Source of the DNA: a virus
Virus record (IMG/VR): IMGVR_UViG_3300035664_000006
Span: 1 to 64,000 of that record
DNA: 64,000 nt
Direction: 5' to 3' (one strand)
Shown: positions 15,474-25,750 of the stretch, in pieces
Layout of the letters: each line of letters opens with the position of its first letter
How positions within the stretch are numbered: position 1 is the stretch's first letter
Position numbers and translations under genes: made by a program
The notes under the pieces: generated by a model
Database searches by the model: none
What the model saw: the letters and a program-made list of their open reading frames with translations, nothing else
What the model was told of the DNA's origin: nothing

Positions 15474-15527
15474 ACAGGCTCATTTTTTCTTGTTTGCAAT
15501 AAGATTATGATATGCTGAATTGAGCCT
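15474..15527 (-). ncRNA. CAGCA-stem RNA 7, Cys(GCA) anticodon-loop cargo
   Basis: AGGCTCA/TGAGCCT; TCTTA-TTGCAAA-CAAGA. Confidence 0.75.
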
Positions 15528-15533
15528 AAAATT

Positions 15534-15610
15534 TGGAGCGGTATACCGGGCTCGAACCGGTCTTATTCTAACTTGGAAGGATAGTGCCATACCTACTAGG
15601 CGAATACCGC
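15534..15610 (-). tRNA. tRNA-Gly(TCC)
   Basis: Cloverleaf, loop CTTCCAA, TCCA end. Confidence 0.9.
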
Positions 15611-15618
15611 AATGTTTA

Positions 15619-15673
15619 ACAGGATACGTTTTATTTCACCAATTGAAAGTTTTGTATTTGCTGAATGTATCCT
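15619..15673 (-). ncRNA. CAGCA-stem RNA 8 (short)
   Basis: AGGATAC/GTATCCT; contains CTTTCAA (Glu-like loop, weak stem). Confidence 0.75.
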
Positions 15674-15679
15674 AAAACT

Positions 15680-15755
15680 TGGAGCCTCCAATAGGAATCG
15701 AACCTACAACCCCCTGATTACAAATCAGGTGCTCTACCAATTGAGCTATAGAGGC
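15680..15755 (-). tRNA. tRNA-Thr(TGT)
   Basis: Cloverleaf with CCA. Confidence 0.93.
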
Positions 15756-15763
15756 ATTATTCT

Positions 15764-15904
15764 TTAAACTTTGTGTTTAGTGCCACACACTGTACAAGTG
15801 GCGTTAACTTTTTTGAAATCAAGGTTCATTACTCGCATACCTTTTCCGTATGTTTTGTCTTGAAATTCATGATTACAATTGCATTTCTTTACTTCTACAG
15901 CCAT
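15764..15904 (-). CDS. Small Cys-rich (Zn-ribbon-like) protein, 46 aa
   Basis: MAVEVKKCNCNHEFQDKTYGKGMRVMN...CTVCG. Confidence 0.6.
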   Translation of the reverse strand: MAVEVKKCNCNHEFQDKTYGKGMRVMNLDFKKVNATCTVCGTKHKV

Positions 15905-17001
15905 TAGGCACCTCTTTTAATAAGAATGTTAATACGATTTTGATATTTACGTTTATCACGTGGTCTAACAGTTTTTTCAACTAGTTCTTGTAATTTAGCT
16001 AAACTAAAATTACCAATTCTAACTCTACCATTTTTAGTTTGATTAGGGTTAGCTTTTCTGTTTCCTTTACTAATAGTTGCCATTTGATGTCCTTATTATA
16101 CTATTATTTATTATTGTTGTCAATATCTTTTTTAAAGAAGATTTTATAATCCGAGTATCTTTCGTTTTTGTTCTGAAGCAATGAATAATGGAATACTATC
16201 AATAGTTTTAACATATTCTACATCATATAATGCATGTTTACAAACCTCTAGCAAGTCTTCCGGTTTACAGTAAAGTTGTACAGTATGATATCTATTATAA
16301 TCTTCTTCAAGAAGATCATCTGCCTTAGTTTGTTTCATATCAATAATACAATCAATGTCAGATAATCTGTCAATTGTGTCAGTATCTAAATTAGTATACA
16401 GAAAAGTAATTTCATCGTTTTTTTCAATTTGTTCATTGAATATATGTTCTAATTCCGTTATATGCATCTTACCCTCATTCTTTATTGTTGTCAAGTGTTT
16501 TTATATTTTCTTCGATAAATTTAATTGCTTCATCGACTGGTAATTCACCTACTTCCACATGAAATACATTTCTGTCTTGTGCATGAGCACCATGTGAATT
16601 AAATGCTACTGTTGGCAATTCTTTATCAAATTTAGATACCAATCTTTCATCATTATATGTATCTAACACTTCTTCAACAACTTCCTTTTTCTTACTGAAA
16701 ATTGCATCCCAATTATCACGATATGCATTGGATGTGCATTTAGTCTGGATTATATCACCAGTTACATCATTTCTTGTTGCCATTGTATATCCTTTACATT
16801 TTTGTTGCCAATATAGTTTTGGCTAATTCTTTTGTTGCGATTAAATCATTCTGACTAAATGAACTTTTAATCTTTTCTGAAAATTCAATTCTTTCTTCTA
16901 TTGTCATTAATCTATAAATTATTTTTATCAATTCATAATCAAATTCAGTTGGTTCTTCTAAATTTTCAAACATAATAATTATCTAGTCAGTGTGTTAAAA
17001 T

Positions 17002-17076
17002 TGGTGGAGCTATCCGGGTTCAAACCGGAGACTATGCCTTGCAAGGGCATTGTGTTATCAACTATACCATAGCCCC
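17002..17076 (-). tRNA. tRNA-Ala(TGC)
   Basis: G3-U70 pair, loop CTTGCAA, ACCA. Confidence 0.9.
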
Positions 17077-17148
17077 AATTTAAATATTATATCAGTTATT
17101 CTACATTGTGTCAAGAAAACTGATAAAAATTGATTTAAAAAGTATCTG

Positions 17149-17220
17149 CTCCATCTCCTGGAATCGAACCAGGCTCGAACGGTTTAACAGACCGACCGCA
17201 CACCTTGTGCGTTAAATGGA
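17149..17220 (-). tRNA. tRNA-Asn(GTT), no CCA, 10-bp flanking stem
   Basis: Loop CTGTTAA; flanks AAGTATCTGC/GCAGATACTT. Confidence 0.85.
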
Positions 17221-17363
17221 GCAGATACTTCTTGGATTTATTCGTTTTGTAGTTTAGTATCAAGAGTGAGTTGTACCAAGATACCGATCATTCAAAATAT
17301 TGTTATACAATATCTAAATCTCGCACCGCATGTTATTGTAAACTATCTTTTATTTATATTTTA

Positions 17364-17426
17364 TCAGGATGCCTTTAACATTTTCAATTTTTCAGATTGA
17401 CGTTTAAAGTTTGCTGAATGCATCCT
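17364..17426 (-). ncRNA. CAGCA-stem RNA 9, Phe(GAA) anticodon-loop cargo
   Basis: AGGATGC/GCATCCT; TCAAT-CTGAAAA-ATTGA. Confidence 0.82.
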
Positions 17427-17434
17427 AAAACTTT

Positions 17435-17521
17435 ACAGGATCTTTTTGGTGGATTTGAACCACCTAACTTACGATTACGAGTCGTTTGTATTTTCCAAAG
17501 GAAAGTTGCTGTAAAGATCCT
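17435..17521 (-). ncRNA. CAGCA-stem RNA 10, Thr(CGT) anticodon arm + T arm
   Basis: ACGA-CTCGTAA-TCGT; GGTGG-TTCAAAT-CCACC. Confidence 0.82.
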
Positions 17522-17527
17522 AAATTT

Positions 17528-23568: not shown

Positions 23569-23591
23569 ACCTAATTAGTCTAATCTTATAT

Positions 23592-23698
23592 TAAACTACA
23601 CTACGGAAGGATTCGAACCTTCGGTTGCCGTCGCATTCAACACACCAGTGTACCGTTACGAATCGAACGTATCTTACCACCATTTATAGTGTAGTTTA
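23592..23698 (-). ncRNA. Stem-enclosed RNA with two T-arms
   Basis: TAAACTACACTA/TAGTGTAGTTTA; TACG-TTCGATT-CGTA and GAAGG-TTCGAAT-CCTTC. Confidence 0.65.
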
Positions 23699-23714
23699 TT
23701 ATAAAATCATATAG

Positions 23715-23825
23715 TAAAGTGCATTAAACAAGGGAAAACGAATGTTATACATCCTCCTGTCTCCTGCCCTCAAGCTCAACACCCTCCTGGCCAGTGATGT
23801 CAAGGTGACTGATTAATGCACTTTA
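23715..23825 (-). ncRNA. Stem-enclosed RNA with repeated CAGGAG
   Basis: 13-bp terminal inverted repeat; three CAGGAG motifs. Confidence 0.55.
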
Positions 23826-23831
23826 ATATAA

Positions 23832-23944
23832 AATCATATAATAAAGCATACTACACGGAATTGAACCGTCTTCATTCAAGCCCGGAGCTCAAACTGTGAT
23901 CCACACAACGCTGATCAGACGCTAATATGCTTTATTATATGATT
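23832..23944 (-). ncRNA. Stem-enclosed RNA with one T-arm
   Basis: 19-bp terminal inverted repeat; ACGG-TTCAATT-CCGT. Confidence 0.6.
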
Positions 23945-23945
23945 G

Positions 23946-24578
23946 TTAATTCCATTTCATGAAATTTATTAATTCCTGTATTTTTTCTTTTTTAGATTCA
24001 TCTGATAATTTTTTAAATTCGGCCCATCTTATTCTAATGCCAGTCCATCCCAGGTCAGATAAAATTTGAGTTCTAATATTATCGTGTGCAACGATACGTG
24101 TGTCAACGTAATGCTGTTCCCCGTCTATTTCCAAGTATAGTTTTTCTTGTATATTTGCAAAATCAACTATATATCTGTTAATATTATGCTGAAATTTTTT
24201 ATTTACAATATGGACAAAACATTCTAAAAAGTATTGTTCAGGATATGAAATTTTGGACGAATGATTTAAAACATATGGTATTTTATCTGGGTTTAATTCT
24301 AAATATTTTTTTCGATGTTCAGAAATCTTCTGTTTTGTTTCTTCGCTATGTTTTCTACCTGTACTAATTATTGACATCTTTTTTCGATGTTCATCGGAGA
24401 TAATATATTCAATTCCAGTTTCTTTTGCTTTTATATATTGATTTTTACCTTTCTTTCCCAACATACCATATGATGGTTTAACTATAATACCATTTGGATT
24501 ACTTTTACATCTTATTTCATGTTGTGTTAATGAATTTTTATTTTTACATTCTCTACCGCAATATTTGCACTTTAACAT
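23946..24578 (-). mobile_element. NUMOD3 + DUF559/Vsr-like homing endonuclease
   Basis: Zn finger, HSEETKQKIS, YIVDF...EIDGEQH...GW..IRI. Confidence 0.8.
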
Positions 24579-24638
24579 GTATATCTCCAATACTATTTTA
24601 TTTATCAATTAAAGTCAAGTGCTTTAACATATTAGTAT

Positions 24639-24715
24639 TGGTGTGGGTGAATGGATTCGAACCATCGACCTAGAATTTAAAAGATTCTTGCTACTACCTA
24701 CTGAGCTACACCCAC
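24639..24715 (-). tRNA. tRNA-Lys(TTT)
   Basis: AGAAT-CTTTTAA-ATTCT, ACCA. Confidence 0.92.
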
Positions 24716-24781
24716 CAAATTTTCTTGCCTTCTTTTTCTGTTTTTGTCTTTCGTTTCATAATTATTTCCTATGTTGTTATA

Positions 24782-24844
24782 ACAGGATACGTTTTTACTA
24801 GTTGAATTAAAAGTTCAGTGTAAATTGTTTGCTGAATGTATCCT
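24782..24844 (-). ncRNA. CAGCA-stem RNA 17, Lys(TTT) anticodon-loop cargo
   Basis: AGGATAC/GTATCCT; TGAA-CTTTTAA-TTCA. Confidence 0.82.
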
Positions 24845-25222
24845 AAAACTGTTTATGCTGTTAATTATACAGCATTTTTATACGTTGTCAATTATTTTAT
24901 CTGGATATTGTGCATCACGGCGTTCAATTTCAGCATATGGACTGTATCCAGGCTGTAATTCCGTGATATTAGTAAATCCATTGGTTTCTGTAATCAAACT
25001 ATCATTAGAATCGATAGAACCACGATATTTACTACCATAACTACCTTCTAATTTACCAGTACTCGGATTAAGATCACCCCATTTAGTGTGATTACCACCG
25101 ATAACTTCAATATAGTAGGTTTTACCAGTTCGGTATGAATAAACAACATGTCTACCGGTATCTTCAGTTTTTGTAAAAAATTTCTTTCGGGTTTCTTCGT
25201 CCATAATAGTTTCCTTTGTGTT

Positions 25223-25296
25223 TGGTGCCTCCTGATGGAATCGAACCACCGCAACCAGTGTGTAAGACTAGTGTTCTCCCATTAAACTAAGGAGGC
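25223..25296 (-). tRNA. tRNA-Val(TAC)
   Basis: Loop CTTACAC, ACCA. Confidence 0.92.
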
Positions 25297-25612
25297 TAAA
25301 ATTGTTGATTAGACAGTTCGTTCTTCAAGTACTTGTTGTTCCCATTTACTTTTTAAATAGATCTTTTGACCATGCAACCAATATTCTTCTTCTGTGAAAT
25401 TAGTAATAACAGCAGGGCCATGTTCATTATGATATTTCCCATCTTGGCAATAACAAGTTCTGCTGCCATCATATCTAATAATTGCTGGACCATCGGTGTT
25501 ATGCGATCTTCCATTCTTCATAAAAACTATTGTTGTATCAGATACGCTAATAGTGAGTTCTGGATTGTCTGGGTTAATATATTCCATAATTACCAAATTG
25601 TAAAGTTAAAAT

Positions 25613-25688
25613 TGGTGCTACCGACTGGGATCGAACCAGTATAGCTGAATTTTCAGTCCAGTGCATGAACCATCACTGCCACAGTAGC
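25613..25688 (-). tRNA. tRNA-Phe(GAA)
   Basis: Loop CTGAAAA, ACCA. Confidence 0.92.
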
Positions 25689-25695
25689 AAAATTA

Positions 25696-25750
25696 TCAGG
25701 ATACGCTTTTTCATTTTTCAAGAATGTTTTTTAATTGCTGCATGTATCCT
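25696..25750 (-). ncRNA. CAGCA-stem RNA 18, Ser(TGA) anticodon-loop cargo
   Basis: AGGATAC/GTATCCT; CATT-CTTGAAA-AATG. Confidence 0.8.

Follow-up and report, generated by a model that had tools for sequence, protein, structure and literature searches.

The window analysed here covers the first 64 kb of an IMG/VR virus record of 95.9 kb (IMGVR_UViG_3300035664_000006), which CheckV rates as 26% complete and which is therefore taken to be a fragment of a jumbo phage genome. It has a G+C content of 33%, and near-identical DNA is present in about 18 lake-water metagenomes. ARAGORN and Rfam placed 26 tRNA genes on the minus strand between 14.2 and 32.7 kb, and a megablast search of this island against GenBank phages returned conserved tRNA pieces only, with no close cultured relative. 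Set among these tRNA genes is a family of small RNA elements whose short members carry hairpins resembling the anticodon arm of a tRNA, and at 9844–11256 on the same strand lies a gene for a 470-aa DUF2828/DUF7788 protein. These RNAs, and the protein that probably holds them, are the subject of this report.

The elements share the motif TTAGG-N5-TNCAGCA, which occurs 17 times in the window, always on the minus strand, against 0.96 occurrences expected; a motif search of the whole record gave 13 reverse matches and no forward ones. Requiring exact-complement pairing left 16 stem-closed elements of 52–215 nt in the window, and with two further motif copies that have no exact closing stem there are about 18 copies in total, all on the tRNA strand. 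The layout is UUUU-AGGNNNN-NUN-CAGCAA-cargo-A-rich tract-NNNNCCU-G, and we use the term handle for its constant part: a covarying 7-bp closing stem, NUNCAGCAA at the 5′ side, opposite it an A-rich tract at the 3′ side, and a G that follows the stem. The sequence of the closing stem varies between window copies and its pairing is always kept.

Homologues were collected from 200 phage loci, fetched either by the neighbouring protein or by the bare RNA motif. Since aligning whole short members with MAFFT put the 3′ strand in the wrong place, we used a pattern-plus-pairing script instead of a covariance model, with the rule that a 5′ AGGNNNN must be paired with its exact downstream complement. This rule recovered 531 elements (423 distinct) in 178 of the loci, with 38 different closing-stem sequences, all paired. 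A G directly follows the element in 527 of the 531 cases, though the rule did not require it, and 444 of the 445 elements that have a tRNA within 1 kb lie on the same strand as the nearest one. Judged by these comparisons, the handle-bearing elements are a genuine structured-RNA family. An Rfam scan of eight related loci at the gathering threshold found only tRNAs among the best 150 matches listed. The family falls into length classes: 179 distinct members of 50–69 nt, referred to here as short members; members of about 85–100 nt, in which the handle encloses a small tRNA body (D-like hairpin, anticodon arm, 4–5-nt variable loop and T arm); and members of about 110 nt with the arm order of the bacterial Y RNA YrlA (T arm, closed acceptor, D arm). 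Longer cargos also occur.

A first-pass annotation of the window had singled out seven of these copies as displaying isolated anticodon stem-loops, and all seven lie where it placed them, on the minus strand. Their folds were computed with ViennaRNA. The clearest is the 61-nt member at 17366–17426, whose hairpin at 17384–17400 (UCAAU-CUGAAAA-AUUGA, 5 bp, triplet GAA) is part of the minimum-free-energy (MFE) fold. The 63-nt member at 21855–21917, between open reading frames (ORFs), likewise has its hairpin in the MFE fold (21875–21891, UUUGA-CAGCUAA-UCAAA, 5 bp, triplet GCU), with A33 in place of U33. The element at 17437–17521 belongs to the class with a tRNA body in the handle: its 85 nt comprise a D-like hairpin, an anticodon arm at 17471–17485 (ACGA-CUCGUAA-UCGU, 4 bp, triplet CGU, in the MFE fold), a 5-nt variable loop and the T arm GGUGG-UUCAAAU-CCACC. 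It starts 6 nt past a tRNA-Ser, and its Rfam tRNA score of 24.3 bits is below threshold. Two further hairpins, each of 4 bp, lie outside the MFE fold. One, at 25712–25726 (CAUU-CUUGAAA-AAUG, triplet UGA), is carried by the 53-nt member at 25698–25750, which has the handle AGGAUAC/GUAUCCU with AUGCAGCAA, directly follows a TTGCAA-17-TATAAT promoter and has a tRNA-Phe 9 nt downstream. The other, at 24803–24817 (UGAA-CUUUUAA-UUCA, triplet UUU, the Lys type), is carried by the 61-nt member at 24784–24844, which follows a sigma-70-type promoter and has tRNA-Lys(UUU) 68 nt downstream.

The remaining two copies are poor. At 15621–15673 a 53-nt member, 6 nt after tRNA-Thr and 10 nt before tRNA-Gly, has a CUUUCAA loop with two closing pairs only, which agrees with its earlier grading as a weak Glu-type hairpin. 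At 15476–15527 a 52-nt member, 6 nt after tRNA-Gly, forms a UCUU/AAGA hairpin at 15504–15488 with the 9-nt loop AUUGCAAAC, and the 7-nt loop UUGCAAA assigned to it as a Cys type is closed by an A·C mismatch. The description of 4–5-bp stems with 7-nt loops thus stands for five of the seven elements (5 bp in two, 4 bp in three), four of them with CU-NNN-AA loops, and fails for the Cys- and Glu-type copies. Even within the window, 4 of the 9 short or medium members have CU-NNN-AA loops on at least 4 bp, compared with 0.07 expected from 2000 dinucleotide shuffles (P < 0.0005).

The homologues make the resemblance far stronger. The search for hairpins covered 181 distinct short homologues, drawn from about 178 phage loci; 144 have one with a 7-nt loop, compared with 73 in dinucleotide shuffles. 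Other loop sizes were not enriched, 9 nt excepted, and the 9-nt excess arises because it is the same hairpin minus its closing pair. The enrichment of 7-nt loops with U33 and a purine at position 37, which the first-pass annotation had proposed to look for against shuffled controls, proved strongly positive: 85 of the 181 have CU-NNN-AA on at least 4 bp, whereas 200 shuffled sets averaged 1.75 ± 1.2 and never exceeded 5. A stem of exactly 5 bp is seen in 102 of the 144 hairpins. Counted over all 144, C32 occurs in 98, U33 in 120, A37 in 112 and A38 in 113, around 35 different middle triplets. CU-NNN-AA is likewise the commonest loop frame of the real tRNAs of these phages (548 of 1104). Members with a T arm show the same AU-rich anticodon stems as the short members, and in 29 of 37 of them the anticodon arm ends 9–10 nt before the T loop, the canonical tRNA spacing.

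The way the loops vary points in the same direction. Across 89 close pairs the per-site difference was 0.006 at positions 32–33 and 37–38, 0.22 at positions 34–36, 0.29 in the 5′ linker and 0.12 in the stem, so that, as far as these pairs tell, the loop frame is frozen while the triplet varies freely. The triplets nevertheless look like anticodons. Among 43 distinct CU-NNN-AA arms, A34 is found in two, though the inserts are 48% A (P 5e-10), the stop anticodons UUA, CUA and UCA are absent where 5.0 would be expected, and position 36 is almost only U or A (C36 once, G36 never). Forty of the 43 triplets belong to the phage-tRNA anticodon set, compared with 20 expected from composition and 36.6 given position-specific base frequencies. 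Lys-UUU leads with 11, followed by Ser-UGA (5), Thr-UGU (5) and Asn-GUU (4). A triplet is repeated within one locus in only 3 of 60 loci, against 8.5 ± 2.4 expected (P 0.01). Taken together, these comparisons support the view that the hairpins are selected mimics of the tRNA anticodon arm and not chance AT-rich hairpins. They had also been described as non-chargeable, and this agrees with what is seen: the elements have neither an acceptor end nor a 3′ CCA, they finish in a conserved CCU-G-UU, and no short member is called a tRNA by ARAGORN or by Rfam. We also considered whether a mimic copies the tRNA beside it, and rejected this, as the anticodons agree for only 1 of 108 neighbouring tRNAs upstream and 10 of 129 downstream.

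Short elements are closely fitted into the tRNA operons. Of 184 such elements, 108 begin fewer than 10 nt past the 3′ end of a tRNA, and for 96 the gap to the following tRNA is under 20 nt. Since short members adjoin tRNAs or promoters, ordinary tRNA end-processing would be expected to release them. In one lake sample, metatranscriptome contigs span parts of the island, among them 15476–15673 and 25698–25750 and hence three short elements, and leave the DUF2828 gene and 26764–29400 uncovered. This is a weak hint that the island is transcribed, as contigs say nothing about RNA ends, strand or level and could stem from carried-over DNA. Beside the Lys-type element there is also a mini-ORF of 17 codons on the minus strand at 24706–24759 (MKRKTKTEKEGKKIWWV-stop), which has a ribosome-binding site and contains 6 Lys codons. 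It sits between the Lys-type RNA and tRNA-Lys(UUU), its last codons overlapping the first 10 nt of the tRNA, and it may be a Lys-sensing leader or may have arisen by chance.

The best candidate for a protein partner is the product of the DUF2828 gene at 9844–11256. At E ≤ 0.01 Pfam reports DUF7788 (8e-48) and DUF2828 (7e-20) only, with no match to the TROVE domain by sequence, and neither sequence nor profile searches found a relative in the PDB. An AlphaFold2 model built from 19 homologues (pLDDT 70, pTM 0.65) predicts a Ro60 fold, that is, a helical ring with a vWA domain, whose metal-ion-dependent adhesion site (MIDAS) D273-x-S275-x-S277 has all three named residues invariant in the 19 homologues. 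When the model was compared with the PDB by Foldseek, the 13 best matches were all Ro60/TROVE proteins (E 2e-5 to 3e-3, TM 0.37–0.55, about 500–540 columns aligned), including those of Thermus phage phiLo, Xenopus and human and Deinococcus Rsr.

The RNA family and this protein travel together. Each of the five large contigs retrieved solely through the RNA motif has a gene for a DUF2828 homologue (E 1e-139 to 1e-279). In complete relatives the RNA copies, 1 to about 10 compared with about 18 in the window, cluster beside the DUF2828 gene, and in the window the gene lies 2–16 kb from the elements. Furthermore, the 5′ leader of the DUF2828 mRNA contains a cargo-free copy of the handle at 11270–11310 on the minus strand (UUAG-UUACAGCAA...CUAA-CCUG), which abuts the ribosome-binding site. 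All 54 distinct leaders of homologues carry the leader handle, whereas the core pentamer has a background of 0.17, and it is likely an autoregulatory site. The first-pass annotation had invoked a Ro-like protein as stabiliser of the short RNAs, and the predicted fold, the clustering of RNA copies beside the gene and the leader handle all support a Ro-like partner; going by genomics and the model, the DUF2828 protein probably binds the handle, and it may stabilise the RNAs.

We therefore favour, with a probability of roughly 0.6, a reading in which the short members are minimal Y-RNA-like partners of the DUF2828 protein, in which the tRNA-elbow cargo of Y RNAs would be replaced by an anticodon-arm mimic; this figure includes the bait step described below. 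Going by their layout, the RNAs would be made on the tRNA strand within pre-tRNA transcripts, either after a promoter or between tRNAs, and processing of the 5′ and 3′ ends of the neighbouring tRNAs would free RNAs of about 60 nt. The handle, with its 7-bp stem, NUNCAGCAA and the opposing A-rich tract, would bind the DUF2828 protein, which would also repress its own mRNA through the leader copy. The cargo, to go by the loop statistics, would be a weak AU-rich 5-bp stem with the loop C32-U33-NNN-A37-A38, presenting one sense anticodon per RNA and differing between the RNAs of one phage. The particle would then offer these loops to proteins that read anticodon loops. Our best guess for the last step is that they would serve as isoacceptor-specific baits or sponges for host anticodon nucleases, with the adjacent tRNA island supplying replacement tRNAs.

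The bait step is the more doubtful part. It is suggested mainly by the identity of the triplets, as Lys-UUU, Thr-UGU and Asn-GUU together account for 20 of the 43 distinct loops, and exactly the tRNAs with these three anticodons are cut by AriB, the PARIS defence effector, which recognises U36-A-A-U-C|A41 and cleaves independently of tRNA modifications (bioRxiv 10.1101/2025.02.04.636281). The sequence U36-A-A-U39 is found in 67 of the 85 mimics that have U36, and the Lys-type arm UUUGA-CUUUUAA-UCAAA is identical to that of E. coli lysT at 15 of 17 positions, differing only at the 27–43 pair. The window tRNA-Lys(UUU), at 24639–24715 on the minus strand, has A39 (U36-A-A-A-U-U), and the window Lys-type mimic keeps U39. 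A change of U39 to A is what makes the tRNA-Lys of phage T5 resistant to AriB, and across loci U39 is found in 15 of 32 phage tRNA-Lys compared with 11 of 12 Lys-type mimics. This is suggestive of a resistant tRNA paired with a sensitive bait, in numbers that are too small and with AU-rich stems as a confounder. From sequence comparison alone, it is possible, at odds clearly below even, that the short RNAs act specifically as bait for anticodon nucleases. More tentatively, the whole could be a form of RNA counter-defence in jumbo phages, a non-redundant, fast-evolving library of anticodon-arm baits on a Ro60-like ring that would soak up or report PARIS- or PrrC-type nucleases as the island replaces the tRNAs they cut.

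Several points weigh against the favoured reading. Two of the seven window hairpins are poor and another has A33. Helix stability does not resemble that of tRNA, as the mimic stems have 21% G+C compared with 60% in the tRNAs of these phages. Of 111 members only 36 have the hairpin in their MFE fold, the median pair probability is 0.09, and the hairpin would probably need protein or magnesium to form. Compensatory changes occur at all five stem pairs; they add little, as the alignment was chosen for pairing. The loci come from related phages, so that the counts given above are not independent events. The idea that each mimic arm is a copy of the cognate tRNA arm of the phage was rejected, with stem identity at 5.5 of 10 for cognate and 5.8 of 10 for non-cognate pairs. 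With regard to the nucleases, PrrC and others are said to depend on modified bases, AriB requires contacts to the D loop as well, which a bare arm does not offer, and the prevalence of U-rich triplets may in part be AT bias.

Of the other explanations, the one that survives best is that the anticodon-arm cargo is an adaptor, which would recruit an anticodon-binding protein to the Ro-like ring for quality control, repair or modification of phage tRNAs. Candidates for the recruited protein would be the t6A37 or i6A37 modification machinery, the anticodon-binding domain of a synthetase or a repair ligase. The loops are almost only of the form C32-U33-N-N-(U/A)36-A37-A38, the loop frame seen in tRNAs with t6A37 or i6A37. 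An Rnl2-type RNA ligase is encoded by 3 of 4 complete relatives, and in one of them (G005) it lies about 3 kb from the DUF2828 gene (ligase and DUF2828 gene at G005:C1:37890-38378 and 41180-42604). There is also a precedent in the Y RNA that tethers Ro60 to PNPase and in the modification of YrlA by tRNA enzymes (Chen et al. 2014, PMC4201824). However, no enzyme candidate is consistently adjacent, RtcB is absent from all five records, and an adaptor leaves both the fast turnover of the triplets and the non-redundant set in each phage unexplained, making this reading unlikely in our judgement.

It is improbable that the short members are cis-acting modules, that is, structured spacers or leaders of polycistronic tRNA transcripts that load the Ro-like protein on the precursor and guide or protect its processing, with a hairpin that merely resembles an anticodon arm. 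Such a role would fit the strict same-strand placement (444 of 445), the position of most short members against a tRNA on one or both sides and the fact that some head transcription units. However, about 40% have no adjoining tRNA, such as 21917–21855 between ORFs, the handle is also found in the DUF2828 mRNA leader, and there are complete relatives whose tRNA islands have few such spacers or none, one of them (G002) having the leader copy only. Avoidance of A34 and of stop anticodons and the non-redundancy of the triplets would also be unexpected of a processing signal. Finally, the weak stems, the two poor examples among seven and the whole and partial tRNA bodies carried by the family could suggest decayed tRNA genes captured in the handle or accidental AT-rich hairpins with no function, which is very hard to believe given the roughly 50-fold enrichment over shuffles, positions 32–33 and 37–38 that change about 40 times less than the adjacent triplet or linker, and the compensatory changes at all five stem pairs, even with their selection bias.

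The other members of the family in the window comprise 11 non-short elements with other cargo, all on the minus strand between 12887 and 21533: 21533–21416, 20877–20787, about 20474–20360, 18064–17944, 17804–17727, 15266–15169, 15157–15048, 14452–14368, about 13319, 13217–13112 and 13101–12887. T arm, D arm and closed acceptor are present together in the long members 15157–15048 and 18064–17944 and absent from the short members. In the tRNA island itself, the tRNA at 32595–32669 (minus strand) has the anticodon CUA and is labelled tRNA-Pyl by ARAGORN; it is of the amber-suppressor type and may point to the reading of TAG late in infection. We also noted a two-piece permuted transfer-messenger RNA encoded by the phage (33534–33927, minus strand, 92.5 bits) and, just downstream of the island, a match to the Polynucleobacter-1 RNA motif (29287–29443, minus strand, 64 bits, above threshold). 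Genes of homing-endonuclease type lie in and around the island, at 11424–12203 on the plus strand (HNH with NUMOD3) and on the minus strand at 23946–24608 (DUF559/Vsr-like with NUMOD3) and 27091–27654 (T5orf172). The gene at 38017–40074 on the minus strand joins a CHASE2 sensor to an adenylate/guanylate cyclase domain (Pfam 1e-40 and 3e-16), which is unusual as a signalling protein in a virus.

Among known systems, the tRNA-Lys, tRNA-Thr and tRNA-Asn of phage T5, which escape PARIS AriB, resemble the short RNAs in that the same three anticodons dominate and both sets lie in a phage tRNA island (PMC11464382; bioRxiv 10.1101/2025.02.04.636281). The T5 tRNAs differ in being functional, chargeable replacements, whereas the non-chargeable short RNAs would act by competition if at all. 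Small stable RNAs that are transcribed and processed together with viral tRNAs or tRNA-like units are known from the tRNA cluster of phage T4 (stable RNAs C and D, or species 1 and 2) and from murid herpesvirus 68, whose RNAs are tRNA-like and cannot be charged. To our knowledge, neither the T4 nor the herpesvirus RNAs have a shared handle, a Ro-like partner or a display of anticodon arms. Literature searches on DUF2828 and on phage decoys of anticodon nucleases returned no description of DUF2828 function or of this RNA family.

The closest family is that of Ro60/Rsr and the Y RNAs YrlA and YrlB, known from bacteria and mycobacteriophages. These have a terminal stem with a conserved internal loop, which is the Ro60 binding site, and occur in several copies beside the gene for a ring-shaped vWA protein of Ro60 fold, an arrangement that the phage RNAs resemble in outline (RF02553; PMC4201824; bioRxiv 10.1101/312249). 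The cargo of YrlA mimics a tRNA, and the long members of the window share its order of T arm, closed acceptor and D arm. The long member at 15048–15157 (minus strand), which has the same handle, scores 39.7 bits against RF02553 (E 3e-7 in a 650-nt search with the full model) and the next best 31.2 bits, both below the gathering score of 69 bits, and no match to this family was found for the short members of the window. There are further differences. The phage protein has no Pfam TROVE match and is assigned to Ro60 by predicted fold, the handle of NUNCAGCAA plus A tract is a different motif from that of YrlA, the short members mimic an anticodon arm, which YrlA lacks, and up to about 18 copies are embedded in tRNA operons. 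Yrn1 of Deinococcus radiodurans has a potential 5-bp anticodon arm flanked by T-like and D-like arms and oriented as in the phage members with a tRNA body (PMC4201824). However, the Yrn1 loop is of 6 nt compared with the canonical C32-U33-NNN-A37-A38 seen here, and no family with varying triplets has been described for it.

A parallel to the handle itself comes from the Class I RNAs of dictyostelids, which are abundant RNAs of about 60 nt, reported as unique to Dictyostelia, with a 6-bp stem, the 11-nt motif CCUUACAGCAA and a CUGU end (RF01414, gathering score 41.5 bits; Kjellin et al. 2021, PMC7919456). Like the phage RNAs, they are closed by a covarying terminal stem with an initial G. Its 5′ strand is followed directly by (C)CUUACAGCAA and its 3′ strand is preceded by an A-rich tract, the end reads CUG(U), and variable cargo and a small number of long members are further points in common. 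The common core is the stem, UUACAGCAA or AUUCAGCAA, the A tract and the CUG end. RF01414 matches 4 of 6 short window members, at 29.3 (15621–15673) and 29.2 bits (25698–25750), and at 23.1 and 22 bits for the remaining pair, 24784–24844 and 21855–21917, all below the gathering score. Unlike the phage RNAs, the Class I RNAs are eukaryotic, have their own promoters and are bound by a known RRM protein, Rnp1A (PMC7919456), and by eye we saw no CU-NNN-AA 7-nt loops in the D. discoideum sequences. An ESM Atlas search returned viral DUF2828 clusters only and was uninformative on Dictyostelium. On scores below the Rfam threshold, it is at most possible that the Class I handle marks a related handle-protein system in eukaryotes.

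Y RNAs are known as mimics of the tRNA elbow, and the phage RNAs described here form a large and widespread family that mimics the anticodon arm, with one identity per RNA. They may also be an RNA-level answer to defence systems that cut tRNAs. They give the uncharacterised DUF2828 family a concrete and testable candidate RNA partner, and RNAs of 55 nt with one protein are simple reagents for binding, cleavage and rescue assays. The phage family may also give a first clue to the role of the conserved Class I RNA motif of dictyostelids.

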